A stretch of DNA of 64,000 nt from an uncultured Candidatus Saccharibacteria bacterium. Its GTDB lineage: Bacteria; Patescibacteriota; Minisyncoccia; Phycocordibacterales; DATDWN01. The translations under genes were made by a program, and so were the position numbers. The notes under the pieces are model-generated. The model was not told where the DNA came from. It did not search any database and was given only the letters and a program-made list of their open reading frames with translations. Where the stretch lies: assembly GCA_964468795.1 (NCBI GenBank), contig CAYXWL010000014.1:22376-86375 (forward strand), written 5' to 3'. This document shows positions 8,571 through 40,747 of this stretch, piece by piece (position 1 is the first letter of the stretch; the number at the start of each line of letters is the position of its first letter).

Positions 8571-8600
8571 TTATTTTATGCATCTAAAGTAGACAGCATT

Positions 8601-8632
8601 AAAAAAACAAACCCTTTCGGGTTTGTTTTTTA
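8601..8632 (-). terminator. rho-independent terminator
   Basis: aaacaaaccc-tttc-gggtttgttt hairpin followed by a T-run, downstream of the 8641-9462 gene. Confidence 0.6.
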
Positions 8633-8640
8633 AATATCTT

Positions 8641-9462: not shown

Positions 9463-9519
9463 GAACTTTATATTAATAATAATTATGCTATTTATGTAGA
9501 CATAATTATCGCATATTTA

Positions 9520-19814: not shown

Positions 19815-20028
19815 AATAATATAAATTAAATATCCGGGTTACCAGATATTTTAGTGCCCAGGAGAGGAGTCTCTGTAATATTATTCTCGCCGACGTTCGA
19901 ATAATATTACAGCGCAGATTCGCTACAAGCGCTGGTGGGCTCGTGCACCGCGAATCTGTTCGAGTCCCCCACGCAAAGCCATGCTTTGCTCTGGGCAAAC
20001 AAAAAAGCCGCATTCGCAGCTTTTTGTT

Positions 20029-22158: not shown

Positions 22159-22414
22159 CAAAATGCATTTTGTGCCAGGACTCGAACGGCGGAGCGATTC
22201 TTGGTTTAACAAAACCAAGACGCGAGCCGGTGCCTAGACCTCCAATGAGCGACGGCGAATTGGAGAGTGGAGGGAGAGATTCCTGTATCGCGCACAACAA
22301 AACCCCATTTGGGGTTTTTGCTATAGAGATTCCAGTATCGCACACTGTAAGGATCGAGTCCTGGCAACGCTTCCCATTTTCTAATATCAATTTTTGTGTT
22401 ATCCTACTGTCATT

Positions 22415-22854: not shown

Positions 22855-23442
22855 TTATTTGTTTTCCAGAACTAATATATCATACACTCCTGTCCAAATA
22901 TTCGGAGTCTTTTTGCCTTGAGGTGAAACTCCTCCTGATATTCCTTCTATTGCAGCACTGCTTATCTTTATCCTTGTAGTTAGCGACTCTAGCTCGTTAG
23001 AAAACTTGTATACTCCTGTCCAAGTTCCCGAAACCCTTATTTTTGCATTGAGTCTAAGATAATTTATCTTGTTCTTATCTTTTTCGTTGTCAGACAAAAT
23101 GCCCAGGGATTCAATATCTATTTTCAATGAATATTTCTTGGCGATATCTTCGATTTTTTCAATAAAGGCAACATCGCCACCTTTTTCAATTATGGAAGCG
23201 TCTATTTTCGAAACTTCTATCTTGTTATTTTCGAAAAATATCTCGTTGCTTTTCAAATAATCTTGCCTTGTATTGAGCAGAGCCAGTTCAGAGTTTAGAT
23301 TGGCAATCTTTTCGTTTCTTGTCTGTATGTCGCTATAGATATAGTAAATAGCGCCTATTACTGCAAGGATAGAAACTGAAAGTATTATAATAGTTTTTGT
23401 ATATTTTTTGTTCTCCATTTTATTTTGCTTGATCAGAAACAA
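22855..23442 (-). CDS. type IV pilus assembly protein PilO-like
   Basis: N-terminal TM plus coiled-coil plus C-terminal domain, following PilN. Confidence 0.45.
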   Translation of the reverse strand: MFLIKQNKMENKKYTKTIIILSVSILAVIGAIYYIYSDIQTRNEKIANLNSELALLNTRQDYLKSNEIFFENNKIEVSKIDASIIEKGGDVAFIEKIEDIAKKYSLKIDIESLGILSDNEKDKNKINYLRLNAKIRVSGTWTGVYKFSNELESLTTRIKISSAAIEGISGGVSPQGKKTPNIWTGVYDILVLENK

Positions 23443-23968
23443 CCAAATTTATAGAAAACTCTATGTCTTTTTCTTTGGCATAGTTGGAAATCGGTATATC
23501 AACAGATTTGAATTTTGATGATGCCTGAAGCTTTTTTGACAGAAGAACTAGATTCTCCCTCGAATCAGCTATCCCTCCTACTGTCACAACAGCCGTGCTT
23601 GTAGCCACCATCCTGTAAGCAACTTGGTCTATGATTATGCCTGAGAACTTTTGAGCCAAGATCGTATCAACTATAGGATTAAATTTCCTGTAATCCAAAA
23701 CTGAGTTCATTACCTGCATTTTTAAGTTCAAAGACTTGATAGCCTCAGTGGTAGGACCGACATTTAAAGACGTGAGATAATTATTCATTTTTTCAGCCTG
23801 AGCCTCAACTTGCATACCCTTATAGGTAGATGAGAACCAAGTTGGCAAAATAAGGACAAGCACCATGCACAGTATTAAAAATGCTGTAAAAAGTATTGCC
23901 ACCGCTCTCCTCTGAGTATACTCGGCCTTGAGGGATTTTTTTATATCTGGAGGTAATAAGTTAAACAT
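23420..23968 (-). CDS. pilN: type IV pilus assembly protein PilN
   Basis: N-terminal FNLLPPD (INLLP-type motif) followed by a TM segment. Confidence 0.6.
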   Translation of the reverse strand: MFNLLPPDIKKSLKAEYTQRRAVAILFTAFLILCMVLVLILPTWFSSTYKGMQVEAQAEKMNNYLTSLNVGPTTEAIKSLNLKMQVMNSVLDYRKFNPIVDTILAQKFSGIIIDQVAYRMVATSTAVVTVGGIADSRENLVLLSKKLQASSKFKSVDIPISNYAKEKDIEFSINLVVSDQAK

Positions 23969-23972
23969 ATTT

Positions 23973-24953
23973 TTACATTAGCGTATCATCTGGAAGGGCA
24001 AGCCCCACAGCACCAGCGAACTTTAGGGATTCATTGAAGTCTATATTTGGAACTGATTTGTTAATATCAAATGCATTTAGCCACACATTTCCATAAACCA
24101 CCGGCGTGCTCATGTGGGAAAAAAGATAAGCCGCTATTGATTCATCAAACCCTTCACCGCATATTATTATCTGTTCAATTTTTTTCTCCGGATTGCCGGC
24201 ATTTTCTTTTAAGGTGTGCCAGTAGATATAAAGCTTGCTCACTTCCTGAAGCAAAAAGCTGGGATTGTTTCCAAGTTCGCCCTTCAAGGCTACAGTAGAC
24301 GTAAACCTCACTGTTCCAGAAGTCTCTATGTATAAACCGACTTTATCCTTGAAGAAATTTATAATGAGGCAAGTATTTGGGCTTTCAGCTGAAGTTAATG
24401 CCCTTACAATAGCCTGCGATTCTATTTCCAAAACCAAAGGCTTTAATCCTGCAGACAAGATGCACTCGGTGTATGTGCTTACAATGCTAGTTGGAAAGTT
24501 TGATACTACGATATCAAGCTGTTCTTTTTGGTTATTTAAAAATACTTTGTAATCGTAAATGAGCTCACTTGGAGAAACTGGTACGTTCTCCTCTATTTTA
24601 GACTCTACTGCGCTTTTTATATCGGCACCTTTAACTATTGGTAGCTTGGTTGTGAAAAGATAAGCTTTTTCTTCGGGCAAAGAAACTTTTACGTATTCAA
24701 GTCCCATTTCAGCCTTGAGAGTGCTCAAAACTTTTACAAGCTCCTCCTTGTTCAGTATATCTCCTGAATTTATGGTGTCTGGAGGCAAAGGCACTTCTTT
24801 GTATTTTTTTATCTTGTGCTGTCTGGCGCCTTTTTCAAATTCAATTGCCCTGACAAATTGGTCAGTTATATGTATACCGGCAAAAGGAAAGTCTAAAAAC
24901 TTTGGAGTTGGAAATGCTACGAATATTTTATCTAAAAAGCTGCTAGTGCTCAT
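23973..24953 (-). CDS. pilM: type IV pilus assembly protein PilM (actin-like ATPase fold)
   Basis: About 326 aa; sits immediately upstream of PilN. Confidence 0.55.
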   Translation of the reverse strand: MSTSSFLDKIFVAFPTPKFLDFPFAGIHITDQFVRAIEFEKGARQHKIKKYKEVPLPPDTINSGDILNKEELVKVLSTLKAEMGLEYVKVSLPEEKAYLFTTKLPIVKGADIKSAVESKIEENVPVSPSELIYDYKVFLNNQKEQLDIVVSNFPTSIVSTYTECILSAGLKPLVLEIESQAIVRALTSAESPNTCLIINFFKDKVGLYIETSGTVRFTSTVALKGELGNNPSFLLQEVSKLYIYWHTLKENAGNPEKKIEQIIICGEGFDESIAAYLFSHMSTPVVYGNVWLNAFDINKSVPNIDFNESLKFAGAVGLALPDDTLM

Positions 24954-25010
24954 TTATCAAATTATATCGCATAGCAGAATAAAAAGAAATTTAAAACTGT
25001 TTATTTTACT

Positions 25011-25379
25011 TTATTTAACAGAGCATCCAGGAGTAACGCTGTCGTTAGTTTGAAGAAGTGAGAAAAATTCTTGAGGCTCTCCATCTCCTGCCGAAAGTTG
25101 TCCGCTGACAGCCAATATCATACCCTGGCTTTCGAAGCCCCTTATCACCCTAGGCTCGAGGTTGGCGGCAAAAGCCACACTCTTCCCCACAAGCACTTGT
25201 GGTTCTGGAAAGTATTTTGATATGCCAGAAACTATCTGCCTTGGTTTTTCTTCGCCCATATCCACCGAGAGCTTCAGAAGCTTGTCTGCTCCTTCAATTT
25301 TTTCTGCAGAAAGGATCTTGCCTATCTTTATATCCAGCTTGTGAAAATCGTCTATTGTAATTGTCGGTTTAGTTTCCAT
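25011..25379 (-). CDS. tRNA-binding domain protein (CsaA/Trbp111/MetRS C-terminal-like)
   Basis: FHKLDIKIGKILSAEKIEGADKLLKLSVDMGEEKPRQIVSGI, an OB-fold tRNA-binding signature. Confidence 0.7.
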   Translation of the reverse strand: METKPTITIDDFHKLDIKIGKILSAEKIEGADKLLKLSVDMGEEKPRQIVSGISKYFPEPQVLVGKSVAFAANLEPRVIRGFESQGMILAVSGQLSAGDGEPQEFFSLLQTNDSVTPGCSVK

Positions 25380-25770
25380 TTTTTTCTTTGTTATTTTTCG
25401 TATCTAAATAGCTTTGCAATATTAGCGCCGCCGCAGAAGCATCATGCATTTCATTTTTACCCTGAAATCTCTCTGCTGCTTGCGAAGTCATGAATTCTGG
25501 ATGGGATTCTACTTCAAGTCGAAGCTCGTCTGTAAGTTTCTGAACAAAGGGTCTTATTTCTTCCATTATTTTGTTATCCTGCCCCGAAAAATCCTTTGAC
25601 TCTCCTACCACTATCATTCCTATATTGTTTATATTTGATAACTCCTTCAGCTCAGAAATAAGTTCGGGAGAATTCTCTAACACTTCCAGAGGAAATGCCA
25701 GCTTTAGATCTTCGTCTGAAATAGCAACACCAACCCTTTTTCCTCCATAATCTATTCCCATGTATCTCAT
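25369..25770 (-). CDS. ruvX: Holliday-junction resolvase-like protein RuvX/YqgF
   Basis: MRYMGIDYGGKRVGVAISDED N-terminal motif. Confidence 0.8.
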   Translation of the reverse strand: MRYMGIDYGGKRVGVAISDEDLKLAFPLEVLENSPELISELKELSNINNIGMIVVGESKDFSGQDNKIMEEIRPFVQKLTDELRLEVESHPEFMTSQAAERFQGKNEMHDASAAALILQSYLDTKNNKEKNGN

Positions 25771-25834
25771 AAAATCAGTTTACAGCAAAATCTGGCTAAT
25801 TGCATTATCATAGTTTTTTGCTATTATTGCCTTC

Positions 25835-26056
25835 ATGGATACGGTAGTAATAAATAGCGTTCCATTAAAATACCTTGTTTTGATGGCTGTATGGACTTTG
25901 CCTTGGAAAGGTTTAGCCCTATGGCACTCTGCGAGACTTTCGCACAAAAGATGGTTTATTGTACTCCTCATTGTAAATACAATGGCAATTCTAGATATAT
26001 ACTACATATATTTTGTTGCCAACAAGTACACAGTTGAGACAATAGAAACAAAATAA
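25835..26056 (+). CDS. small hypothetical 2-TM membrane protein
   Basis: ORF only, 73 aa. Confidence 0.2.
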   Translation: MDTVVINSVPLKYLVLMAVWTLPWKGLALWHSARLSHKRWFIVLLIVNTMAILDIYYIYFVANKYTVETIETK

Positions 26057-26060
26057 ATAC

Positions 26061-26147
26061 GGATGGGTGGCTGAGTGGTCTAAAGCAACGGTCTTGAAAA
26101 CCGTCACCTGGGTAACTGGGTCGTGAGTTCGAATCTCACCCCATCCG
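26061..26147 (+). tRNA. tRNA-Ser (TGA)
   Basis: Acceptor GGATGGG/CCCATCC, anticodon stem ACGGT/ACCGT, loop CTTGAAA, long variable arm, T-arm GTGAG-TTCGAAT-CTCAC, discriminator G. Confidence 0.8.
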
Positions 26148-27608
26148 CATAGTAATATTATCGTCATCTTTTGACATCAAATCAAAAGGAGAATGCAAAG
26201 TAAAATCTAGCTTTTTTTGATTTAACACACAGTTCTGGAGTAAGAAACTTAAAAGTTGTCGTTTTTCATTTACTTCGGAACTCATAAAAATCTCTTTTGC
26301 TCTCTTGGCTATACTCAAGAGTATATTTGCTGTTACATAAAATTGTTCATCTGCTACAGAATGGTCACCCATTAACTCTAATATTTCAGCTTGTCTAGAT
26401 TTATATTCGGTTAATAACTTGTCATACATTTCTCCCGTAAGACGGCCGTCCAATCTGTCCTCGTACATCTTCCTTATTCTTATCTCATATTTATCGTAAT
26501 CAGCTTTCAAACTATTCATGCTGTTTTTATGGAACTTGTTTTCACTATCACCTAAATATCTCAATCCACTTTTTATTTCTTCAATTCTCTCATCTGATAA
26601 CTTAATGCTGTCCAAAATAGTATTCACTTGATCAATCAATTCACTTTCAGGCACATAAACTCTTTCACAGTTTTTATACCCTGAACAACTGTAATAAGCA
26701 TATTTACCCTTTTTAAGTTGTCCTCCAACAACACCTCCGCACTTAGAACAAGTTATTAATCCTCTAAACACAAAAGGTTTTGATGCATACTTTGTTGGAA
26801 CTTTATTGTGTCGCTCCATTACTTCCTGACATTTTTCAAATAATTCTTTTGAGACTATAGGTTTATATCTATGGGCATACAGTAATTTATGAGTCCTTGA
26901 ATATGCTTTACCGCAATAAAAATGGTTATTTAGCATATTAAATATCATTGCATGATTTACTTTTCCTCCTTCCTTACTTCGCAAACCAAAATCATACATT
27001 CTGTCAGATAGAGTAACAAAAGATACATCTCCCTTGGAATATTCCTCAAATGTCTTAACGACTAGATGAGCTTTTCCATCTGGAACAACATCAACTCTTC
27101 TCATCCTTAGTGGATTATTGTTATATACACTTTTGTATCCAAGTGGAGGTGCTCCGGTTATATCTCCATCTTCTCTCATCTTGCCTTGCTTTCTCTTTAG
27201 GTTATCACTCAATTGCAATACATAATTTCTAGCAAACAGGACTGACATATCCCACCTCATAAGATCAGCACTATTTGAATTTTTATTTATTACCAAGTTC
27301 TCTCTATAAAAATGAAGCTCGACCTTTTCTGCTTTTCTTAAATCATCAAATACAACTGACTCTCTGAAACTTCTTTGTAGTCTGTCTACAGTATCAACCA
27401 CCAAAGCCAAAGGTTCTTTAGATCTTTGTATTATTTCAATAATCTCATGAAACTTTTTTCTATCTCCTTTGGTTGATGACTCTTTAAGTTTAAACACTTT
27501 CCACTCCTCTAAATCTCTGTTTTTTACATAGGACATTATTCTAGATAACTGTGCTTCGTTTGAGTCCTGATTTTTGTCAGAAACTCTAGCTAATATAATT
27601 GTTTTCAT
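26136..27608 (-). CDS. large serine recombinase (resolvase catalytic domain + recombinase domain + zinc ribbon)
   Basis: ILARVSDKNQ catalytic-Ser motif and VVDTVDRLQRSF. C-terminal CSKCGG...YYSCSGYKNCE Zn-ribbon. Stop codon lies inside the tRNA-Ser 3' end. Confidence 0.85.
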   Translation of the reverse strand: MKTIILARVSDKNQDSNEAQLSRIMSYVKNRDLEEWKVFKLKESSTKGDRKKFHEIIEIIQRSKEPLALVVDTVDRLQRSFRESVVFDDLRKAEKVELHFYRENLVINKNSNSADLMRWDMSVLFARNYVLQLSDNLKRKQGKMREDGDITGAPPLGYKSVYNNNPLRMRRVDVVPDGKAHLVVKTFEEYSKGDVSFVTLSDRMYDFGLRSKEGGKVNHAMIFNMLNNHFYCGKAYSRTHKLLYAHRYKPIVSKELFEKCQEVMERHNKVPTKYASKPFVFRGLITCSKCGGVVGGQLKKGKYAYYSCSGYKNCERVYVPESELIDQVNTILDSIKLSDERIEEIKSGLRYLGDSENKFHKNSMNSLKADYDKYEIRIRKMYEDRLDGRLTGEMYDKLLTEYKSRQAEILELMGDHSVADEQFYVTANILLSIAKRAKEIFMSSEVNEKRQLLSFLLQNCVLNQKKLDFTLHSPFDLMSKDDDNITMRMG

Positions 27609-27627
27609 CTTTTTGTTATTTATTATT

Positions 27628-27975
27628 TTATAAGACTTTATTAATTTTCTCTGCCTCTGCTTTGGCTTTCTGTTGGTAACTTAAATACTCCTTTCTGTTT
27701 ATTGCATACATAGTTGAGTTGCTTAAAAACCTCTCTAGAACCTTAGCCATCGTGGTTTTTTGTAACTTAGCTATATATCTCAAAACGTTAAGATAATTAA
27801 TTCCCAATCTAACTAGTTTAGTTTTCCGGAAAGTCCGTCTTTTAGCTCTATTCTTAGAATTATCCCAAGACTTTCCGATCTCCACCCTCAACTCATCAAT
27901 CCAACCTTTATAATCAAATTCTTTAACTTTTTTCATATTTTGTTTACAATTTTTAATTATCATTTTTCCCCTCAT
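27628..27975 (-). CDS. small basic protein, possible HTH/DNA-binding
   Basis: 115 aa, Lys/Arg-rich. Adjacent to the recombinase. Confidence 0.3.
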   Translation of the reverse strand: MRGKMIIKNCKQNMKKVKEFDYKGWIDELRVEIGKSWDNSKNRAKRRTFRKTKLVRLGINYLNVLRYIAKLQKTTMAKVLERFLSNSTMYAINRKEYLSYQQKAKAEAEKINKVL

Positions 27976-28142
27976 CCATACATATTTTCTTTTGTAATGT
28001 TTATATTCTTTTCAATCAGTTAGGCTCCTCAGTTCCTAAATTTTTGTCTGACAAAAGAAATAAAAAGTTATTTATTGATGAGCATGTGAGGTCCCCCGTT
28101 GGATGACTCCAGAGCGGGGACTTGCACTTGCTCACCAATAAA

Positions 28143-28364
28143 TTACACAGCCGGTTTATTTTCTGAGAAACTCGCTGACGCCCCAGTTACAAAAGATTGT
28201 TTCAAACTATTTTTGCCTTGTAGACTAGAATATAAATTTGGATTTACACGCCTATCTACTTTGTAAAGAAGTGCGAAAAAATCAATCAAGTTTTTGTTTT
28301 CAAAACCTGTTTTAGTTTCGGCGACGAAACTTTTGGTATCATTTTTTCTTACCTTTACTGGCAT
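28143..28364 (-). CDS. hypothetical small protein
   Basis: ORF only. Confidence 0.25.
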   Translation of the reverse strand: MPVKVRKNDTKSFVAETKTGFENKNLIDFFALLYKVDRRVNPNLYSSLQGKNSLKQSFVTGASASFSENKPAV

Positions 28365-28413
28365 GATGCCAGTCTCTCATGTAACTAGTTTTTGCAATAT
28401 GAAATTAAGCGTA

Positions 28414-29223
28414 CTATGCTTGTTTTCTGTGTGATCTTTCTAAAGAGATCATTTTGTTTATATCATCATATGTGTATGGACCAACTTCACCTGATCTACT
28501 AATCTTTTTAAACTTTTGATTTACAAGCTTGGCTAAATCACTTCCTTTTATTTGACGGTTTTCCCAGACAAAAGCTTTTACCTCTTTAATTGAAGACTTT
28601 TTTGCTCGGAATTTGTTAATTTTTATTTCAGGATTTAAATATCTATCTTGAATAGGTTTAACTTCTGTAATAAACATTTTATGGATGTAATCAACTAACT
28701 CATTTTCCTTAACATATGGAGTAATGTTTATTGCAATGGGGTATTCTTTAACCGTTTGCTTGTTAACTTCGTTTCCCTCCACATCATTTTTTCTAATAGA
28801 GTCGCTTACAAGAACTTGCTTATACACGAAAGTATCTACTAAAGAAATCCTTTTGTTATAAAATACGAAAAACTCTACTGTGTCTGACCAACTTCTAATT
28901 GGTAAGGCATATTTTTCACAAATCTTATTTACATCTTTTTTTAATAAAAATTGTGCCTCATGCCCTTCTTTTTCATACCACTCATCTGGAATACTTGGAC
29001 CTTTATTTCTCCACTCATAACCCCTTAGAGGAATATGATGCTTAATTCTAATTGTTCTTACATCACTTAAAAAACGATCACCATTTGAAATCTCTACAAA
29101 ATATTTCCACATCTTTTTGAAAGAATTTGAGGAACGTAATCCTTTTACATTTCTCTCTTTAAAGTGGTCGTTCAAGACCTTTGAGTATTCTTGGTCAAAC
29201 TTGTCGTTTTTCTTCCAGTCCAT
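28414..29223 (-). CDS. hypothetical protein
   Basis: 269-aa ORF with no recognisable motifs. Confidence 0.35.
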   Translation of the reverse strand: MDWKKNDKFDQEYSKVLNDHFKERNVKGLRSSNSFKKMWKYFVEISNGDRFLSDVRTIRIKHHIPLRGYEWRNKGPSIPDEWYEKEGHEAQFLLKKDVNKICEKYALPIRSWSDTVEFFVFYNKRISLVDTFVYKQVLVSDSIRKNDVEGNEVNKQTVKEYPIAINITPYVKENELVDYIHKMFITEVKPIQDRYLNPEIKINKFRAKKSSIKEVKAFVWENRQIKGSDLAKLVNQKFKKISRSGEVGPYTYDDINKMISLERSHRKQA

Positions 29224-29348
29224 AAACGGAATTGTAATGAAATGTATACAAAATAGATAGCCCTACCTACACCAAATTGTGGCTTCTTGTGGCTTTGTTA
29301 TTTCCAATATATCCCTATAAATAAGGCTGTTTTGCCTACACAAGATAC

Positions 29349-29377
29349 TTGACAGAATAGTTAAATGGGTGTATAAT
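29349..29377 (+). promoter_or_regulatory. consensus sigma70-type promoter (TTGACA-17 bp-TATAAT) facing the small-gene array
   Basis: ttgaca at 29349-29354, a 17-nt spacer, tataat at 29372-29377. Followed by palindromes gaaagtgctcaa/ttgagctttc and gggac...gtccc. Confidence 0.6.
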
Positions 29378-29472
29378 TTGGATGTAATAAGTTGTTCTAA
29401 GAAAGTGCTCAATTTGAGCTTTCTCTTGGGACAATTTGGTCCCGATTTGTTCATTTTATCTGGAGGAAATCA

Positions 29473-29685
29473 ATGAAAAAAAGCCGTTATCTCGTGTTCT
29501 GGGTCTTGAACGGAACCATGAACATGGGGACTCAGACCGTAGAACTCAACGGTGTCATGAACACTGCTGAGTTCAACGATCTGCAGAAGAAATTGCGAAA
29601 GCAACACGGCAAGAACCTCTGCATTCAAGCCTTTAGCAAGTTTGAAGGCAATGATCTTCCGGTCATTAACATCAATGTGAAGTGA
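29473..29685 (+). CDS. small hypothetical protein (cassette 1 of GC-rich array)
   Basis: GGAGG RBS. 70 aa. Own GC hairpin terminator downstream. Confidence 0.4.
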   Translation: MKKSRYLVFWVLNGTMNMGTQTVELNGVMNTAEFNDLQKKLRKQHGKNLCIQAFSKFEGNDLPVININVK

Positions 29686-29799
29686 CCCCACCAAATATGG
29701 GGAGACTCAGTCTCCCCATCCCATCAAAGCAATTAAGAAACAATCTTGATTACTTTGATGGGATCAATTTCGATCCAAAGTTCTTTGAGGAGAATTTCA

Positions 29800-30060
29800 A
29801 TGCTCAAGTACAACGGTGGCTGCATGACCACTGAAGAGATCCTGAAGTTTCAGGAGTCCATGACTTTCAGCGATGCTGAAGGTTACTCAATACAGGACAC
29901 CGATCGGATCGTAAAGCATCTCAGACACTGTCAGAAGTGCCACGAGAGATGCGATGACGCGGTTCGTAACTACTTCAAGGAAAAGGAGCTCATTCGCTTG
30001 GGCTTCAAGACCGCAGCACAGATGATGCTCGACGGGATCGACAATCAGCGTCGTTTCTAG
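29800..30060 (+). CDS. small Cys/His-rich hypothetical protein (cassette 2)
   Basis: Start chosen after the conserved ttctttgaggag RBS block. HCQKCHERC cluster suggests metal binding. Confidence 0.4.
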   Translation: MLKYNGGCMTTEEILKFQESMTFSDAEGYSIQDTDRIVKHLRHCQKCHERCDDAVRNYFKEKELIRLGFKTAAQMMLDGIDNQRRF

Positions 30061-30175
30061 CACAACTTCTCCACAACGGGCGAACATCGGGTTCGCCCTC
30101 CCACCAAAGTAATTAAATCTTTTTGATTTCTTTGGTGGGGCAATTTTGCCCCGGTTCTTTCAAATTAGGTGTAGC

Positions 30176-30436
30176 ATGTTTGTTCAAATCGAAGTTCGGT
30201 ACGAATGGTTTGGCCAGAACACGGACATCAGCTTCGTCGGTCCTTTCGAGGATAAGTCGCTCGCTGTTACTTGGAGCGATGAATTCAATACCATCGCCAC
30301 AGTTCGCAAGGTCAAGGCGAAGTCCGAAGTCATTGAGGGTTCACCGACCAACCGAGTCGTCGAACCCGCAAACAAGACACCGCAAACTGTGCTCTCGACC
30401 GTCCTCCAGTCAATCAGCGAGGTCTGCCGAGGGTAA
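30176..30436 (+). CDS. small hypothetical protein (cassette 3)
   Basis: Preceded by the palindromic site and an RBS-like block. Start chosen at MFVQIEV. Confidence 0.35.
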   Translation: MFVQIEVRYEWFGQNTDISFVGPFEDKSLAVTWSDEFNTIATVRKVKAKSEVIEGSPTNRVVEPANKTPQTVLSTVLQSISEVCRG

Positions 30437-30542
30437 CACATACGGGCGACAGAACATCGTCGCCCTCCCATCAAAGTTTTTAATGTTTTGAAAATTTTGA
30501 CGGGATCAATAAGGGTCCTAAGTTCTTTGAGGAGATAGACGG

Positions 30543-31061
30543 ATGATTACTGCCAGAAAAGGTTTTCCGCCGGTTCCGACCGCCGTAGCATCCATTCTGT
30601 TGGTTGCGATCGGTTTGCTCGTTCTCAGCATCATTGGGAGAATGAGTGCCCCGCTCATCGCCTACAACGACGATGGAAGCAAGATGACGGTCTACGCGAA
30701 CGTCATCACCACTGCAATCGAGCAGGCGAAGTATCGTGTCACAGTGAGCACTCACTACGAACCAGGGAAGAAAGCGGTTCGGATCGTCGACATGTATTCC
30801 CTGGAAGACAAGATGCACGCCAGCGTCACAGGGATCATGCGTGAAGATCTTGGTACTTGGGTTCGTACCTGCGCACTTTCAGACGAGAGTCTGAAAGGAG
30901 CACAGCCCCAATGCAACGAGAACGACAACATCGCCCTACGACTACTCGATGAGGCGATGAAGAAGACGATGGTGCGTGAAAACGCCATCGGCAACATGGA
31001 AGTTTTCTGGGCATGGGAACAAGGAACGAAAGAGGTCATCAACCAGATCAAGAACAAGTAA
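30543..31061 (+). CDS. membrane-anchored hypothetical protein (cassette 4)
   Basis: ttctttgaggag RBS. N-terminal TM. Followed by terminator gaccgcc...ggcggtc. Confidence 0.45.
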   Translation: MITARKGFPPVPTAVASILLVAIGLLVLSIIGRMSAPLIAYNDDGSKMTVYANVITTAIEQAKYRVTVSTHYEPGKKAVRIVDMYSLEDKMHASVTGIMREDLGTWVRTCALSDESLKGAQPQCNENDNIALRLLDEAMKKTMVRENAIGNMEVFWAWEQGTKEVINQIKNK

Positions 31062-31092
31062 TACTTCGGTCTGGAACGTCTCCGACAGGACC

Positions 31093-31140
31093 GCCTTGCG
31101 CTAAGCGCTCGGCGGTCTTTCATTTTGTATACTTTTCAAA
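31093..31140 (+). terminator. rho-independent terminator after cassette 4
   Basis: ggaccgcc-ttgcgctaagcgct-cggcggtc followed by tttcatttt. Confidence 0.5.
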
Positions 31141-31437
31141 CACCCCCACTCCCCTCAAAAATTCGGTTTTGTTCGGATTTATAAAATGCCACCTATTTTC
31201 AAGAACAGCTTTAGTTTTACTCTATTTCTGGTATAATTGTGTATACAACTGAATATGGCCTAAACTTTTGAAAACAAGAGCATGGCACAGCAAGTCCTAA
31301 CAGACACAAAAAACCCATCATGGGGTTGTCTGTTAGGCCATATCGGGAAACCGGTATGAGAGGGTTCGCCCTCTACCCGTGGTGGGCTTTTTGTATTCTT
31401 AAAGTCCAAAACGGATTATTAAATTAATTACTAATCC

Positions 31438-31860
31438 ATGGATCAAACAATTCAACCTAAGAGGAGGTGGTACAAAAGTAAATGGTTTATTATTATAGTT
31501 GGAGTAATAGCACTAGTTATATTCTCAAGTTTTGGTGAAAGTAATACAAGCAACACAAGTACTAATCTATCTAACATTCCAAGTTCAGGCGAAGAGGGAT
31601 ACTTAAGAATAGAAAATAGTGAAATAGTTACTTTAGCTAGAACTAAAGAAGATTACGATGAACTCAATAAAGCTATGTATGCTAAAGATACTTACGGTAT
31701 AGCAAGAATGGTGATGGAGAATAAAGCTTTTGATGTTCCTGTTGGGACTAAGGTATTAGTTATTGATCAAAAATTTGGTGGTAGAAAAGTTAGAATACTT
31801 GAAGGTAAATATGCCATGGAAGATGGTTGGGTTGTTATGGAATTTGTAAGTAAGCAATAA
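31438..31860 (+). CDS. membrane-anchored hypothetical protein
   Basis: GGAGG RBS. N-terminal TM. Low-GC. Confidence 0.4.
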   Translation: MDQTIQPKRRWYKSKWFIIIVGVIALVIFSSFGESNTSNTSTNLSNIPSSGEEGYLRIENSEIVTLARTKEDYDELNKAMYAKDTYGIARMVMENKAFDVPVGTKVLVIDQKFGGRKVRILEGKYAMEDGWVVMEFVSKQ

Positions 31861-31862
31861 CT

Positions 31863-32057
31863 ATGAGGCCTGTAATTTCCAAGAAACACGCATTGGAATT
31901 ACAGAAAATAATTAAAGATACTACTGGAAGAAATCTACCCTTAGGGGACTGCTTTGCCCTACTGGGACACCTCTGTGGACTCCTAGGGCTCTTGTGGTCC
32001 GTAGAGGATAGAAAAAATACATCTGAACCCAAGAACAACACGAAGTCATTGTGGTAA
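31863..32057 (+). CDS. small hypothetical protein
   Basis: ORF begins 3 nt after the previous stop. Confidence 0.25.
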   Translation: MRPVISKKHALELQKIIKDTTGRNLPLGDCFALLGHLCGLLGLLWSVEDRKNTSEPKNNTKSLW

Positions 32058-32212
32058 CCAGCTGGTTTGCTTGATTACTAGATATTTTCTATATTATTCA
32101 TTTAAAATACATGCGTTTTGCACTCTTATAAATCCATATTATTTACAATTTTTATCCCCAAATTAACTCTTGCTGCTTTTTATAAACCCATTTGGTATAA
32201 TGTTCGTAAGTA

Positions 32213-33229
32213 ATGCAAAACACTAAAAAACTTAGAACTTTAGATTTATTTGCTGGAATAGGAGGAGTGAGAATGGGTTTTGAAAAAGCAGGATTTGAGA
32301 CCATTTTTGGAAATGATTTTGACCCCTATTGCAAAGCAACCTATGACCTCAATTTCAAAGAGGCTCCTCTTACAGTTGCAAGTATAACTGAACTAAAAAC
32401 ATCAGCCCTACCAAATTTTGATGTATTACTTGGAGGTTTTCCGTGTCAGCCATTTTCAATTGCTGGTTACAGAAGAGGTTTTTTAGACACAGGAAGAGGT
32501 GATTTATTTTTTGAGATTATTAGAATAATTCGAGACAAAAAACCTCAAGCTGTATTTTTGGAAAATGTAAAAAACCTAAAATCCCATGACAAAGGAAAAA
32601 CTTTCAGTATTATCTCGGAAGCTCTTAAAGATCAGGGGTACTATGTAAAAGTAATGGTTCTTAATAGCATGATGTATGGAAATGTCCCACAAAATAGGGA
32701 AAGGGTTTATATCGTAGGTTTCAAATCAAAAAAACAATATGATGCTTTTGAGTTTCCTGTGCCTACCCCTTTAACAAAATCTGTAGAAAGTGTCCTAGAG
32801 AAAAATGTTGATAAAAAATACTATTACAATAATTCCTCACTTTATGAAACTCTAAAAAAATCAGGAATGAAGAAAGGAGTTGTATATCAGTGGAGAAGAG
32901 CTTATGTCCGAGAAAATAAAAATGGAGTATGCCCAACCCTAACGGCTAATATGGGAATGGGAGGTCACAATGTGCCATTGATTAAAGACACTAAAGGAAT
33001 AAGAAAACTTACACCAAGGGAATGTGCAAGACTTCAGGGCTTTCCTGATACATACAAATTACCAACCACTTTACCAGACTCAAAGCTATACAAGCAGTTT
33101 GGGAACTCAGTGACAGTAACAGTAATTGAGCGTGTTGCTGAAGCAATGAAAAGAGCGTTAGAATACAAAGACAATGTTCCTAGACCGACAACCAAAAGAT
33201 CAAGTAGCCTACTACGAACGACTGCTTAA
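32213..33229 (+). CDS. dcm: DNA (cytosine-5)-methyltransferase
   Basis: Motif I LFAGIGG, IV GGFPCQPFS, VI ENV, VIII QNRER, C-terminal QFGNSV. Confidence 0.9.
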   Translation: MQNTKKLRTLDLFAGIGGVRMGFEKAGFETIFGNDFDPYCKATYDLNFKEAPLTVASITELKTSALPNFDVLLGGFPCQPFSIAGYRRGFLDTGRGDLFFEIIRIIRDKKPQAVFLENVKNLKSHDKGKTFSIISEALKDQGYYVKVMVLNSMMYGNVPQNRERVYIVGFKSKKQYDAFEFPVPTPLTKSVESVLEKNVDKKYYYNNSSLYETLKKSGMKKGVVYQWRRAYVRENKNGVCPTLTANMGMGGHNVPLIKDTKGIRKLTPRECARLQGFPDTYKLPTTLPDSKLYKQFGNSVTVTVIERVAEAMKRALEYKDNVPRPTTKRSSSLLRTTA

Positions 33230-34361
33230 AGCGGTTGGCTCTTTATCTAACCTTTTCTCAGAGTCTCCTGAGCCTTATTTGGCGTCCAGGGCTACTGAAA
33301 ACCTATTTTGTAAGGCTTTTAATGCAGAAAACCTTTCAAGATCTGATGCTTCCGCTGATGCTTCAAAAAATCGCATTGGACTTGGTATAAAAACCTTTCT
33401 TGAGGGTAACGGGCGTACCATGCAAAAAATAGCTGAATTCAATGGTGATCACATGCTATTTGAGTCTTTATCTCCTACAGAAAAAATAAAGAAAATAGCT
33501 GAATTAAGGAATGAAAGAATTGAAACAACTAAGCGTATTTTTGGATTAGATGAACTTATTTATCATTGTATAACAAGAAAAGTAGGAAAAATCTTGGTTT
33601 ACGAGACCTCTACTCCATTAATTAATATATCTGAAATTAAAGATGTAAAAGTAAACAAGAAAGAAAGTGTAATTCAATTTTCAGATAACACAGCAGAGTA
33701 TTCATTCAATGTATCCAAAAGCACTCTATATAAAAGATTTATTACTGAAAACATTTTATTGGATGTTCCCGTAAGAATACTTACTGATCCATTTTCAGAG
33801 ATAGAAAAACTTATTGCAGAAAAGGGTCTTATTTTTGCCCCAGAAAAAGTTTTACCTCATGTATTTTTACCTCTTTATTCAACAAGAGGCGGAGATAAAC
33901 ATGTGCCTGAAAAAAGCGGACTAAACCAATGGAATGCTCAGGGAAGACCGCGCGACCTGAATGAAGTCTATGTTCCTATACCAGCATGGATACACAGAAA
34001 GTTTCCTGGATTTTTTCCTCCCAGAGACCAAGCTTTTGAATTAACACTTCCAAATAGAGATATTCTTAGTGCTAAGATTTGTCAGGATAATTCAAAAGCC
34101 TTAATGAGTAACCCTAACTTAGCTTTAGGTAAATGGCTTCTAAGAGATGTAATGAACTTAAAGGAAGGTGAACTTCTTACTTATGAAAAATTGCAGACAA
34201 TTGGGCTAGATGCAGTAGTAGTCTACAAGATAGATAACCAGCATTATGATATTGATTTTACAAAAATTGGATCTTATGAAAAGTTTGAGATTGAGAATGG
34301 AGAAGGAACAAAGGATGATGAGTCGGAAACCATTACTGAACAAGACCAAGACGAAGAATAA
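33174..34361 (+). CDS. putative type II restriction endonuclease partnered with the C5-MTase
   Basis: 395-aa ORF overlapping the MTase 3' end. No recognisable family motif; called by position. Acidic C-terminal tail. Confidence 0.35.
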   Translation: MFLDRQPKDQVAYYERLLKAVGSLSNLFSESPEPYLASRATENLFCKAFNAENLSRSDASADASKNRIGLGIKTFLEGNGRTMQKIAEFNGDHMLFESLSPTEKIKKIAELRNERIETTKRIFGLDELIYHCITRKVGKILVYETSTPLINISEIKDVKVNKKESVIQFSDNTAEYSFNVSKSTLYKRFITENILLDVPVRILTDPFSEIEKLIAEKGLIFAPEKVLPHVFLPLYSTRGGDKHVPEKSGLNQWNAQGRPRDLNEVYVPIPAWIHRKFPGFFPPRDQAFELTLPNRDILSAKICQDNSKALMSNPNLALGKWLLRDVMNLKEGELLTYEKLQTIGLDAVVVYKIDNQHYDIDFTKIGSYEKFEIENGEGTKDDESETITEQDQDEE

Positions 34362-34494
34362 CCAGCTACCGAACAATACTAAAATTATTATATAAAATTA
34401 ATTCTTGAGTCACTTTATTAAAATTTATAGTTCTAAACGCATTTAACCATTCCCGCAGACAAAAACACCATACAAATGGTGTTTTTGCTTTTAA

Positions 34495-34686
34495 GCGGAT
34501 GGGGTGAGATTCGAACAGATAGGGGTCGGGAAAGAAAGTCTTTCCCGGGGAGGAAGGCTTGGGAAAACCGTGGGTTTACCAGAGGTTCGCAGACTCACCA
34601 TTCCGACAACGAGTCGCGGTCGAAAGAATCTTGTTTTGCCGAAAACAAAATTACTTGAGACGGAATCTCACTCTTTCTCCCCTCCC
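34495..34686 (+). repeat. tRNA-fragment-associated structured element, copy 1 (inverted tRNA-Ser 3' fragment + conserved hairpin)
   Basis: Positions 34495-34516 are the reverse complement of tRNA-Ser 3' end gttcgaatctcaccccatccgc. Hairpin cgggaaagaaagtctttcccg. ggaaaaccgtgggttt shared with copy 2. Confidence 0.5.
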
Positions 34687-34740
34687 AATACAAATCTCCA
34701 CTTCACAACTTTTTATCTATTCACATGATAAAATTCTAAT

Positions 34741-35253
34741 ATGAGTGAATTTGGAACCGATCTGCAGGAAAAGCAAATATTTTATCTATTTGAAGGAAGC
34801 CTGTTTTTAAAAGGCGTACATGCTGTAATTGAAATTATTGGCGGAATATTGACTCTCTTCATTACTCAAAACTTCTTAATCAATGCAGTATTAGATATAA
34901 CCCACAAGGAGCTCGCTGAAGATCCGCACGATTTTCTAGTCAATTACCTGCTCCATTCGGCAAACAACTTTTCTATTAGTTCCAAATATTTTATTGCGTT
35001 CTACCTACTTAGCCACGGTGTGATAAAAGGAATACTAGTTATTTTGCTTTATGCAAAAAAGCTGTGGGCATATCCTGTTTCAATATTTGTATTTGGACTT
35101 TTTATGATATACCAGATACAGAGATACACTCGCACTCATTCCGTCTGGCTAATTGCCTTTACAATATTTGATGCATTTGTGATTTGGCTCATATGGCATG
35201 AATATAAACTTCAAAAATCCAAATCTGGGCTTGTTAGTTTGAAATCATCATAG
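34741..35253 (+). CDS. multi-TM membrane protein
   Basis: Four or more hydrophobic helices. Confidence 0.4.
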   Translation: MSEFGTDLQEKQIFYLFEGSLFLKGVHAVIEIIGGILTLFITQNFLINAVLDITHKELAEDPHDFLVNYLLHSANNFSISSKYFIAFYLLSHGVIKGILVILLYAKKLWAYPVSIFVFGLFMIYQIQRYTRTHSVWLIAFTIFDAFVIWLIWHEYKLQKSKSGLVSLKSS

Positions 35254-35285
35254 ATAAGTTGCCAGCCGAGTGATATAATTTTGAT

Positions 35286-35735
35286 ATGAAACTAAAACAA
35301 TTGTCAGTTTTATTGTCTAGAATCGCACTGTTCGTAATATATTTTTGGTTTGGAATATTAAAAGTTATCGGCCTATCACCTGCAAGCGGAATTGTACAGG
35401 AGCTTTTCGCAAAAACACTAAGCCCAATTCTTCACGCACTGCACCTATCTTTTATCACAGCCGGAACATTTGTTGTCATATTCGGAGTATTTGAAGTCAT
35501 AATAGGACTATTATTTATAATTCCTGGAAAAGAGAGATGGGCCATATATGCATTTTTTGCCCATATAGTTACAACAGGTCTTCCGCTATTTTTCCTAAAG
35601 ACATCTGTTTGGACTGGAGTTTTCGTTCCAACGCTTGAGGGTCAGTACATTATAAAAAATCTAGCATTGATTGCCTGCGTTGTTAATATATGGTCAATAT
35701 TGCCGACAAAAACAGAAGATCCGGTTATAATATAA
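35286..35735 (+). CDS. DoxX-like multi-TM membrane protein
   Basis: Four hydrophobic helices; about 149 aa. Confidence 0.35.
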   Translation: MKLKQLSVLLSRIALFVIYFWFGILKVIGLSPASGIVQELFAKTLSPILHALHLSFITAGTFVVIFGVFEVIIGLLFIIPGKERWAIYAFFAHIVTTGLPLFFLKTSVWTGVFVPTLEGQYIIKNLALIACVVNIWSILPTKTEDPVII

Positions 35736-35738
35736 ATT

Positions 35739-36200
35739 ATGAATAAAATTTCCTGGAAAGCATTTGAATATTTGCACACAGAAAAAACCTCAGACTGGTA
35801 TTGGATCGTCGGAATAATCAGCGTGTCTATAGCCATACTTGCAGTAATATTCAATAACCTAATATTTGCTCTGCTCATTTTGGTATCAGCTGCAACCCTT
35901 TCCCTCTTTGCATCTAGGCCTCCACATCTAATAGAGATAAGCATTGATGCAGCTGGCGTAACTATAGGAAAAACTAGATACCCATACGTCCATCTCGAAT
36001 CTTTTTGGGTTGAAACAAACGAACATTACCCGAGGCTTCTCCTGAAATCAAAAAAGGTTTTAATGCCTTTTATTGTGGCTCTCATAGAAGAACACGATGT
36101 TCATCCAGATGAGATAAGAACATTTTTGCTCAATCATTTGCCAGAAGAAGAGCACACAGAACCTCTTTTGGAAAAAGTACTGCTTTACTTGGGCTTTTAG
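35739..36200 (+). CDS. membrane protein
   Basis: Two TM helices plus a soluble C-terminus. Confidence 0.35.
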   Translation: MNKISWKAFEYLHTEKTSDWYWIVGIISVSIAILAVIFNNLIFALLILVSAATLSLFASRPPHLIEISIDAAGVTIGKTRYPYVHLESFWVETNEHYPRLLLKSKKVLMPFIVALIEEHDVHPDEIRTFLLNHLPEEEHTEPLLEKVLLYLGF

Positions 36201-36238
36201 TTTTTTCTACCTTTTGTGATAATCTGACCATTATCTAT

Positions 36239-36310
36239 GCTCTCGTAGTTTAATGGATAGAATGCAACTTTGCGGAAGTTGCGATCCAAGTTCGATTCTT
36301 GGCGAGAGCA
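36239..36310 (+). tRNA. tRNA-Arg (GCG; anticodon assignment tentative)
   Basis: Same scaffold as the 22415 tRNA (GCTCTCG...GTTCGATTCTTGGCGAGAGC). Anticodon stem CAACT/AGTTG, loop TTGCGGA. Confidence 0.55.
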
Positions 36311-36464
36311 CAAAATATACGTAGTAGATTTTGCTTGAGCCAAAATCGAACTAGATAGGGGTCGGGAAAGATAGTCTTTCCCGTGTCGGAAAGCAGCGAG
36401 CAGAGCGAGCGTTGGAAAACCGTGGGTTTCCAAGGAGAGAGATATCCTGGCGAGAGCACAAAAC
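36311..36464 (+). repeat. tRNA-fragment-associated structured element, copy 2, bounded by a direct repeat of the tRNA-Arg 3' end
   Basis: ggcgagagcacaaaa at 36301-36315 and 36449-36463. Interior hairpin cgggaaagatagtctttcccg plus ggaaaaccgtgggttt. Confidence 0.5.
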
Positions 36465-36492
36465 AAAAAAACCACCAAATGGTGGTTTTTTG
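36465..36492. terminator. rho-independent terminator downstream of rpsT
   Basis: aaaaaaccacca-aat-ggtggtttttt hairpin. Confidence 0.55.
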
Positions 36493-36762
36493 TTAAGCTG
36501 ATGCTTTCTTTAGCATCGCAGCAATTCGAGATTTCTTTCTAGCTGCTGTGTTCTTTTTTATAAGGCCAGTTTTTGCCGCCTTATCGAGAATTTTTTGAAC
36601 CTCTTTCATGTACTCCTTTGCATCCTTCACTTTCTTGTCTGCAACAAGTTTTTTGATGTTCTTGAGAGTTTTGTTTACTTTCTCCTTCTTTGCAGTATTG
36701 AAAGACTTCTTTCGCTGTGATCCTCGAAGAGCCTTTTTAGCTGATTTTGTTATTGGCATAGG
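36493..36762 (-). CDS. rpsT: 30S ribosomal protein S20
   Basis: MPITKSAKKALRGSQRKKSFN..., a typical S20 sequence. Confidence 0.85.
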   Translation of the reverse strand, partial: PMPITKSAKKALRGSQRKKSFNTAKKEKVNKTLKNIKKLVADKKVKDAKEYMKEVQKILDKAAKTGLIKKNTAARKKSRIAAMLKKASA

Positions 36763-40554: not shown

Positions 40555-40747
40555 AAAATTTAAAAAATCCTGATTACTCAGGATTTTTTATTTTGTGCGC
40601 CCAGGGGAATCGAATCTTACAGATTCTGTACACCTGTTCTACTTTTTGTTGCTAACCGCACAAAAAGTTATCACAGGTCTTCGATTCCCCACAAAACTAT
40701 CTCCCAGACAGTTTCTCCGGGTCTACAAATTTCAAAATTGAAATTTT

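Follow-up and report, generated by a model that had tools for sequence, protein, structure and literature searches.

Why should a serine recombinase gene run into the 3' end of a tRNA-Ser gene while an exact inverted copy of that 3' end lies about 8.3 kb away, beyond a set of genes of very mixed composition? This question was raised by a 64,000-nucleotide stretch of contig CAYXWL010000014.1 (hereafter the window) from an uncultured Candidatus Saccharibacteria bacterium, in which an initial annotation had described a segment bounded by 22-bp inverted repeats, either an integrative element that entered at tRNA-Ser and had since rearranged or an invertible or composite element. Comparison of the window with related loci (designated by L numbers) revealed, with a probability of roughly 0.93, that positions 26150-34457 form an 8,308-bp integrative genomic island, which its own recombinase, a large serine enzyme, inserted into the host at the very 3' terminus of the tRNA-Ser(UGA) gene (Table 1). 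Checks of open reading frames (ORFs), domains, and repeats recovered every feature of the initial annotation at or near the place given there; three further features had gone unrecorded, namely, the right junction (34430-34457), a LOOT RNA (31257-31374), and, after tRNA-Arg(gcg), a second copy (36353-36429) of the core of a tRNA-matched element described below.

The initial annotation had proposed a comparison with related genomes lacking the segment, and such an empty site was found in contig L065, which is from the same species and a different sequencing run/sample and was retrieved by exact-sequence look-up of the RuvX protein of the window. L065 matched the window at 100% over 26149..23293 and 34577..34453, with the two matches overlapping by 5 nt (CCGCA) and exactly 8,308 bp absent, and its sequence (tRNA-Ser...CCCATCCGCA, GACAAAAACACCATACAAATGGTGTTTTTGCTTTTAA, GCGGATGGGGTGAGATTCGAAC, AGATAGGGGTCGGG...) was identical to the site reconstructed earlier in silico by deleting 26150-34457. 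This match pattern indicates that the island comprises 8,308 bp, is flanked by a 5-bp direct repeat, and is precisely present or absent at a tRNA gene between close relatives (strains) with identical flanks. Alignment of the junctions of five islands gave the same direct repeat, CCGCA, at the two island ends. The true junctions are therefore the attachment (att) sites attL and attR with CCGCA, proved by the L065 empty site, and the supposed boundary at the 22-bp inverted repeats does not hold. Throughout the island family, attL consists of CCGCA followed by NNGTAAKATTATC, and attR consists of GTTCTRAACGCATYTAACCAYTCCCGC at the far end of each island (34430-34456 in the window), after which unrelated host DNA begins. 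Since the acceptor-stem bases at the left junctions vary with each host tRNA, the crossover must lie 3' of the acceptor stem. The attB junction reads tRNA-Ser...CCCATCCGCA/GACAAAAACACC, and the predicted attP junction reads ...AACGCATTTAACCATTCCCGCA/TAGTAATATTATCG. No direct copy of the tRNA 3' 22-mer was found within three mismatches at the distal end, only CCGCA being repeated. Serine recombinases require only a very short shared core, so that no long direct repeat is expected at the island ends.

A metagenome scan with the P-arm motif returned 17 stretches, 16 in the attR form and one (contig L045, from a relative) in the attP form, where the P arm runs straight into the P' arm and the 3' end of the recombinase gene. 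The short core shared by attL and attR was thus recovered together with a matching attB in L065 and a matching attP in L045, as is typical of large serine recombinases. The recombinase would exchange strands inside the short core CCGC(A) common to the attP of the element and the attB of the host; attB would correspond to the tRNA discriminator base plus trailer, and the core would be left as a 5-bp direct repeat at attL and attR. The target tRNA-Ser stays intact after integration, and the insertion point lies between tRNA-Ser and a tRNA-matched host element that was ancestrally just past the tRNA-Ser terminator. In these respects the island is a routine example of site-specific integration.

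Several points weigh against integration of the island by its own recombinase. Neither an excised circle nor an attP junction of the window island itself was recovered, and the sole attP contig, coming from a relative, could be a tandem junction and not a circle. The position of the crossover dinucleotide within CCGC, the activity of the recombinase, and any function of its C-terminal tail are deduced from sequence. Moreover, the island is without the HTH_17 and ~370-aa genes of its relatives and so may no longer excise alone, and no structural or replication genes were found in it, so that a free form may be plasmid-like, phage-like, or a satellite.

The recombinase carries the Resolvase catalytic domain (2.4e-12, residues 4-118) followed by the Recombinase (7e-12) and Zn_ribbon_recom (8.3e-9) domains in its C-terminal part, and Ser10 in the motif ARVSDKNQ (RVSDKNQ) is presumed to be the catalytic serine. 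It has 1,036 homologues at E<=1e-20. Weak matches to NCBIfam XisF, CcrB, and CcrA scored far under the cut-offs (59.9 versus 375 for XisF and 48.1 versus 900 for CcrB); thus, the recombinase is not the equivalent of any named enzyme. Its gene does end inside the 3' end of tRNA-Ser(TGA), as first described, with the stop codon (26136-26138) falling in the T-arm. Recombinases 70-76% identical to it were encoded in L007, L030/L031, L032, and L033; in L030-L033 the stop codon likewise lies inside the tRNA-Ser T-arm, while the cargo is entirely different in L030, L032, and L033. The related islands accordingly share the recombinase, the tRNA-Ser site, and the end sequences and differ in cargo.

The attP site sits within the 3' end of the recombinase gene (34366-34455 plus 26136-26150, both on the minus strand), so that a tail-coding remnant at the right end of the island is continuous with the gene in the excised attP form alone. 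The recombinase ORF of L045 runs without a break through the attP junction (...NITVREWLDAFRTVDWREIRL..., L045 91-453). When the strand opposite the P arm was translated in 20 islands, a conserved peptide, REWLDAFRT[VI][DN]WK..., of 22-49 residues was obtained, with a stop wherever the contig allows; because this tail peptide is conserved despite codon changes, conservation concerns not only the DNA site but also the protein. The predicted excised form of the recombinase has 516 aa, and the integrated form has 490 aa, ending in ...ITMRMG. With attP inside the 3' end of the gene, integration replaces the conserved tail: about 28 residues (REWLDAFRTVDWK...) would be swapped for three to four residues read from the tRNA. 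Truncation of the tail may affect recombinase activity or directionality, and its loss upon integration may amount to an intrinsic switch that distinguishes the free state from the integrated one. No direct precedent for an attP located within a serine integrase gene emerged from a literature search. In addition, attL, attR, and attB at base level, together with the attP of a relative, offer a ready-made recombinase/site pair from a bacterium of the candidate phyla radiation, for which there are almost no genetic tools at present.

What, then, is the inverted copy? There are exactly two occurrences of the 22-mer GTTCGAATCTCACCCCATCCGC, one at 26127-26148 (+) and one at 34495-34516 (-), against an expectation of none from 100 shuffles; the exact inverted copy reported at first is thus confirmed. 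It lies 37 nt outside the island, beyond the host terminator, a terminator-like hairpin that directly follows tRNA-Ser in the empty site. In island-free L065, the terminator, the inverted 22-mer, and the core all stand immediately after tRNA-Ser, and in L008, L013, L017, and L025, also island-free, the sequence downstream of tRNA-Ser comprises, in order, a terminator, an inverted 3'-end copy with an intervening hairpin, a core, and a direct copy; in L032, an equivalent element is located just past the attR of that island. The 22-mer copy constitutes the left arm of an element that belongs to the host, and it has no part in island integration. In this Ser element, the left arm reproduces the final 22 nt of the tRNA exactly, in inverted orientation. 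Next come a core of "type D" (34517-34582) and, in direct orientation, a degenerate version of the tRNA 3' end (34583-34606); the remainder (34607-34680) is a 3' module resembling "type A" that closes with a second degenerate copy. The element looks composite: the 3' portion of a type A element comes after a type D core. Insertion of the island split the Ser element away from its tRNA. The core is found again downstream of two arginine tRNAs, tRNA-Arg(gcg) of the window and tRNA-Arg(tct) of L027, in both cases flanked by inverted and direct copies of the 3' end of that very tRNA, and the sister element at tRNA-Arg(gcg) shows that such elements are independent of the island. The initial annotation had allowed that the 22-mer copy might be a tRNA-Ser fragment unrelated to the island; this proved right in spirit, the 22-mer being tRNA-related host sequence. 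A tRNA-like or transfer-messenger RNA (tmRNA) gene on the minus strand of 34495-34700 was considered and rejected (none called by ARAGORN; unremarkable fold, z = -1.8). The left ends of two short assemblies of the source species, L055 and L060, fall inside the type D core (window 34559-34590); since this core is repeated after tRNA-Arg(gcg), these breaks are probably an assembly effect, not real variation.

The composition of the island is mosaic, as first noted. The guanine-plus-cytosine (GC) content is 0.46-0.53 over 29.5-31.2 kb, compared with 0.30-0.35 on the left (recombinase arm) and 0.32-0.40 on the right, and the third-position GC of the four genes in this block is 0.63-0.69 versus 0.21-0.46 in the four neighboring genes measured, supporting a foreign codon usage of the block. 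The four small genes, all with ribosome-binding sites, are bracketed by one consensus promoter and one terminator and are separated by three spacer units, each consisting, in order, of a GC-rich hairpin, a palindromic hairpin of ~20 bp (CCCAYCAAAG...CTTTGRTGGG), a small hairpin, and GTTCTTTGAGGAG; fold z-scores of the three units were -4.5 to -6.8 relative to shuffled controls. None of the four ORFs matched anything in Pfam, PHROGs, NCBIfam, or PADLOC, and a relaxed-threshold Rfam scan of the block gave chance-level matches only. The 172-aa protein has 11 homologues, and its gene occurs with the same upstream spacer unit and other neighbors in L034, an island with a different serine recombinase, and in L035, between housekeeping genes. 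We read the block as a separately acquired mobile operon module with conserved sites between its genes, which perhaps serve RNA processing. The promoter and 5' leader are 84% identical to L017 220-314, which precedes another GC-rich small gene. That gene adjoins one of two ARAGORN-predicted tRNAs with anticodon tta (L013 280-353 and L017 972-1045), for which the cognate codon would be the UAA stop. Flanking the operon, at 29238-29254 and 31122-31138, is an inverted repeat of 17 nt that contains GTATAC and is 94% complementary; it has no target duplication and no counterpart in the regions of L034 and L035 that were read. In L034, a group I intron (9212-9478, minus strand; 84.7 bits) stands beside the gene for the 566-aa serine recombinase of different kind.

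Could the region instead be an invertible DNA switch, in which the serine recombinase flips the ~8.3 kb enclosed by the two inverted 22-bp stretches of tRNA-Ser 3' end? The exact repeats flank the region and the recombinase gene abuts one of them, as such a switch would require, but the inverted copy is already present 37 nt from the tRNA in island-free L065, comparable inverted copies exist in relatives without a recombinase, and the conserved junction sequences of the family lie at CCGCA, not at the 22-mers. All contigs of the source species that reach the island are colinear with the window in a single orientation, and look-ups of the DUF2127 and RuvX proteins for population variants found no inverted form; the repeats are therefore not recombination sites with two orientations between them. 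The enzyme, moreover, is of the large integrase type (PHROG integrase, 1.8e-55), not a small invertase. Inversion is thus highly improbable, being largely refuted by the precise CCGCA-to-CCGCA absence in L065, and no evidence of inversion or rearrangement was found. Equally little probability attaches to the idea that the island carried a normal direct repeat whose displaced tRNA fragment, at the right end, was later flipped by inversion or rearrangement. Islands in tRNA genes (tDNA) made by tyrosine integrases do usually leave such a direct-repeat fragment, according to the Islander paper (PMC4383910), and the sole long copy here is inverted. However, an intact family-consensus attR stands in direct orientation at 34430-34457, so that no rearrangement is needed, and deletion of 26150-34457 yields exactly the natural L065 sequence; a long direct repeat would in any case be unexpected for a serine recombinase, given the very short core required. 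Of the integrative element that was thought to have rearranged after entering at tRNA-Ser, the entry, by the adjacent recombinase, stands and the rearrangement falls away.

That the region is a prophage integrated at tRNA-Ser is also unlikely. The PHROG integrase match, a Sie-like protein, and weak Phage_CRI and Bro-N matches in the precomputed annotation of the relative's island in L033 would fit a phage origin, but no capsid, tail, terminase, portal, or lysis genes were found among about a dozen ORFs, the size is only 8.3 kb, and a direct Pfam scan of the homologous ~370-aa backbone protein of L030 failed to reproduce the Phage_CRI match. A viral contig collection scanned with the recombinase, the 172-aa protein, and the attP pattern gave nothing, neither protein having relatives there. 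We likewise give little credence to an integron-like array, in which cassettes would have been captured at the palindromes of the GC-rich block with the adjacent recombinase as cassette integrase, although four small genes are separated by repeated palindromic units and in L034 and L035 the 172-aa gene, across the same unit, has different neighbors. In the island ORFs that were scanned, no domain of the tyrosine-recombinase (IntI) type was detected; the palindromes are near-perfect ~20-bp stems without the RYYYAAC/GTTRRRY ends of attC sites; the block has its own consensus promoter, conserved leader, and terminator, as in an ordinary operon; and the sites of the recombinase itself are well defined and unrelated to the spacer units. 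The "cassette array" of the initial annotation, in the integron sense, was therefore abandoned, and the integrative island with a separately acquired operon module is retained.

The Ser element belongs to a wider set. In the window and related loci, 22 of 121 tRNAs (about one in five) are followed just downstream by a structured, tRNA-matched element of ~95-185 nt, made of an inverted copy of the 3' end of its own tRNA (often hairpin-interrupted), an interchangeable core, and a direct copy of the tRNA 3' end. At least four core types were recognizable, with three copies unclassified, and core type is independent of tRNA identity. Among the 22 core motifs in 542 kb, 19 are found downstream of a tRNA encoded on the same strand, at a distance of no more than 250 nt; the three exceptions are the Ser copy of the window, separated from its tRNA by the island, and two copies at contig ends. 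The interrupting hairpin showed compensatory changes at seven of eight base pairs, a count that leans towards structure because the sequences were picked and trimmed by eye. Of the seven tRNAs of the window, five (Leu, Val, Ser, Arg-gcg, and Lys) have such an element behind them. Rfam held no matching family, relaxed scans beyond the 22-mer and after tRNA-Leu, tRNA-Val, and tRNA-Lys gave chance-level matches, and a literature search, including full text, found no description of such tRNA-linked elements. We tentatively suggest, at slightly less than even odds, an undescribed family of Paceibacteria elements that are either RNAs guided by or mimicking tRNAs, transcribed and processed together with the tRNA, or new selfish elements targeting tRNA 3' ends. 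Such elements, should they prove to be functional RNAs or mobile elements of a new class, bear on tRNA processing or genome dynamics in reduced genomes.

The three hypothetical minus-strand genes of the initial annotation correspond to ORFs of 115, 73, and 269 aa, none of which matched anything in Pfam, PHROGs, NCBIfam, or PADLOC. Related islands share, besides the recombinase, an HTH_17 protein (~58 aa; next to the recombinase in L030-L033) and proteins of ~370, ~60, and ~270-350 aa, the last two of which the window island keeps as its 73- and 269-aa proteins. The HTH_17 and ~370-aa genes are absent from it, no remnants being found, and their place is occupied by the 115-aa protein; excision may consequently depend on other factors. 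A single-sequence structure model of the 115-aa protein was unusable (predicted local distance difference test score [pLDDT], 50). The 269-aa protein has 467 representatives, and its structure model (pLDDT, 88.5) suggested only local helix-turn-helix similarity, with no whole-fold match. In L007, a 1.08-kb GC-rich block (54% GC; 7590-8672) between tRNA-Ser and the recombinase gene is flanked on both sides by CCGCA, plus degenerate P-arm-like sequence, and may be the remnant of a second element integrated in tandem; in L028 (5082-6197), a P-arm motif (three mismatches) and tRNA-Ser are ~1.1 kb apart, the interval containing no recombinase gene, and this arrangement looks like a decayed island remnant.

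The right arm carries a C5-cytosine methyltransferase and a 395-aa probable restriction endonuclease, as initially annotated, now matched by Pfam, TIGR00675, and PADLOC; the adjacent genes overlap by 56 nt and form a type II restriction-modification pair. The hidden Markov model searches that had been suggested for three proteins thus matched the endonuclease (PADLOC and Pfam) and the 140-aa protein (PHROG), while the 269-aa protein found no family. By sequence, the 140-aa protein resembles superinfection-exclusion (Sie-like) membrane proteins of phages. The island shows defense genes moving between genomes of the candidate phyla radiation. The LOOT RNA was not found in the scanned loci L007, L030, L032, L033, L017, L034, and L035, and a literature search on it found no direct precedent; a TATAAT-like hexamer read by eye lies upstream of it, which the promoter scan did not pick up, and a terminator-like hairpin lies downstream.

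A scan of species-representative genomes with the neighboring PilM-like protein yielded 23 loci from Paceibacteria/Parcubacteria-type genomes. Protein matches revealed a conserved order of RuvA, S20, tRNA-Arg(gcg), a 153-aa gene, a DoxX-like gene, tRNA-Ser, DUF5652, RuvX, a tRNA-binding protein, and PilM, with a gap between the DoxX-like gene and tRNA-Ser of 90 bp (L029) to a few kb in relatives and about 9 kb in the window. A DUF2127 membrane-protein gene (34741-35253), located between the Ser element and the DoxX-like gene, was missing from that position in all 23 related loci; thus, the region to the right of the island also varies. In one sub-lineage (L008, L013, L017, L024, and L015), the RuvA-to-RuvX block, with its tRNA-Arg(gcg) and tRNA-Ser genes, has the opposite orientation with respect to PilM; this rearrangement is older and has nothing to do with the island.

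Table 1. Features of the tRNA-Ser island, its junctions, and the tRNA-matched elements (positions refer to the window unless a locus is given)
Feature	Position	Strand	Evidence
tRNA-Ser(UGA) (tga anticodon), integration target	26061-26148	+	ARAGORN; Rfam tRNA, 62.7 bits
attL core CCGCA (tRNA discriminator base and first trailer bases); left direct-repeat copy	26145-26149	+	Five-island junction alignment; 5-nt overlap in L065
P' arm of island, TAGTAATATTATCG...; minus strand also codes for last recombinase residues	26150-26190	+	Conserved as NNGTAAKATTATC in L030, L032, L033, L007, and attP contig L045
Large serine recombinase, 490 aa in integrated form	26136-27608	-	Pfam Resolvase, Recombinase, Zn_ribbon_recom; PHROG integrase, 1.8e-55
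115-aa basic protein, no family assigned	27628-27975	-	No match in Pfam, PHROGs, NCBIfam, PADLOC
73-aa conserved-backbone protein	28143-28364	-	Homologues in L030, L032, L033, L007; 52-67% identity over 24-33 aa core
269-aa backbone protein	28414-29223	-	~50-residue part resembles helix-turn-helix DNA-binding domains
Operon promoter (TTGACA, 17 nt, TATAAT)	29349-29377	+	Only 12/12 sigma-70 consensus match in 26000-36600
GC-rich operon, four small genes	29473-31061	+	Sequence and repeat analysis
Operon ORF, 70 aa	29473-29685	+	
Operon ORF, 86 aa	29800-30060	+	
Operon ORF, 86 aa	30176-30436	+	
Operon ORF, 172 aa	30543-31061	+	
Operon spacer units (n = 3)	29686-29799, 30061-30175, 30437-30542		Repeats
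Spacer unit elsewhere	L034 1826-1940, 2450-2565; L035 6820-6929		
LOOT RNA (RF03000), cargo	31257-31374	+	cmscan, 81.1 bits versus gathering 46.4; E=1e-13; model positions 1-121 of 121
140-aa protein, N-terminal hydrophobic helix	31438-31860	+	PHROG 25409, 9.3e-9; PHROG 8545 (Sie-like), 2.2e-6
64-aa ORF, no assigned role	31863-32057	+	ORF list; gene-called in 2/3 assemblies
C5-cytosine DNA methyltransferase, type II restriction-modification	32213-33229	+	Pfam DNA_methylase, 8.4e-91; TIGR00675, 5.9e-98; PADLOC MTase_II, 1.6e-123
Type II restriction endonuclease, 395 aa, NgoFVII-like C-terminal B3 DNA-binding domain	33174-34361	+	PADLOC REase_II, 5e-106, residues 12-371; Pfam RE_NgoFVII_C, 5.9e-11
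Displaced coding remnant of recombinase C-terminal tail, REWLNAFRTINFNKVTQELILYNNFSIVR then stop	34366-34455	-	Tail peptides conserved in 20 islands; L045 ORF contiguous across attP
attR, island right end: conserved P arm GTTCTAAACGCATTTAACCATTCCCGC with core CCGCA at 34453-34457	34430-34457	+	Same motif in L030, L032, L033, L028; L065 junction
Host terminator-like hairpin, CAAAAACACCAT ACAA ATGGTGTTTTTG	34460-34490	.	L065 sequence; analogous hairpins in L008, L013, L017, L025
Host tRNA-Ser-matched element, outside island	34495-34680	+	Adjoins tRNA-Ser in L065; homologous arrangements in L008, L013, L017, L025, L032
Sister element after tRNA-Arg(gcg), type D core, arms matched to Arg tRNA	36312-36458	+	Second core copy, 36353-36429
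tRNA-matched elements of the window	19855-20028, 22160-22294, 34495-34680, 36312-36458, 40596-40747	-, +, +, +, -	
tRNA-matched elements in other loci	L008, L011, L014, L017-L019, L021, L024, L025, L027, L029, L030, L032		

Compared with known systems, the island resembles elements using phiC31/Bxb1-type integrases and the CcrAB recombinases of the staphylococcal cassette chromosome mec (SCCmec) in its three-domain recombinase, in attL and attR sharing few bases, in insertion at the 3' end of a conserved host gene that is preserved, and in the recovery of an attP form and an empty attB; it differs in that its target is a tRNA discriminator base plus trailer in a host of the candidate phyla radiation and in that attP lies within the recombinase coding sequence. 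For the latter feature, the nearest precedent found, by analogy, would be the "suicidal" tyrosine integrases of archaeal Sulfolobus spindle-shaped virus (SSV) type, described as exclusive to archaea, in which the att site lies within the integrase gene and integration splits the gene (PMC8371274). Integration likewise alters the gene here, but the SSV-type enzymes belong to the tyrosine recombinases, and integration leaves their genes as two inactive halves, whereas the window enzyme is a serine recombinase that loses only a ~28-residue tail, its 490-aa form keeping all three recognized domains. With the tRNA-gene islands catalogued by Islander, it shares an intact abutted tRNA gene, an integrase gene beside the tRNA, and variable cargo including defense genes; those islands (PMC4383910) usually have tyrosine integrases and a displaced tRNA fragment, unlike the serine recombinase and the mere CCGCA repeat of the window. 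Hin/Gin invertible segments also have inverted repeats near a serine recombinase gene, but the repeats of the window are not crossover sites, and its large integrase-type enzyme is accompanied by one orientation only. As in integron arrays, short genes of the GC-rich operon alternate with palindromic sites behind one promoter, and a gene has other neighbors elsewhere, although the operon is without IntI and the attC consensus, its palindromes are near-perfect, and a conserved terminator stands at its end. Finally, the tRNA-matched elements recall the tRNA-like domain of tmRNA, viral tRNA-like structures, repetitive extragenic palindromic (REP) sequences, and miniature inverted-repeat transposable elements (MITE) in that they are short, structured, and repeated and their arms are able to form pairs resembling the acceptor and T stems of the adjacent tRNA; they differ in that the arms extend over the discriminator and trailing bases as well, one of at least four interchangeable cores takes the place of the T loop, no Rfam family covers them, and each copy is matched to its own tRNA.

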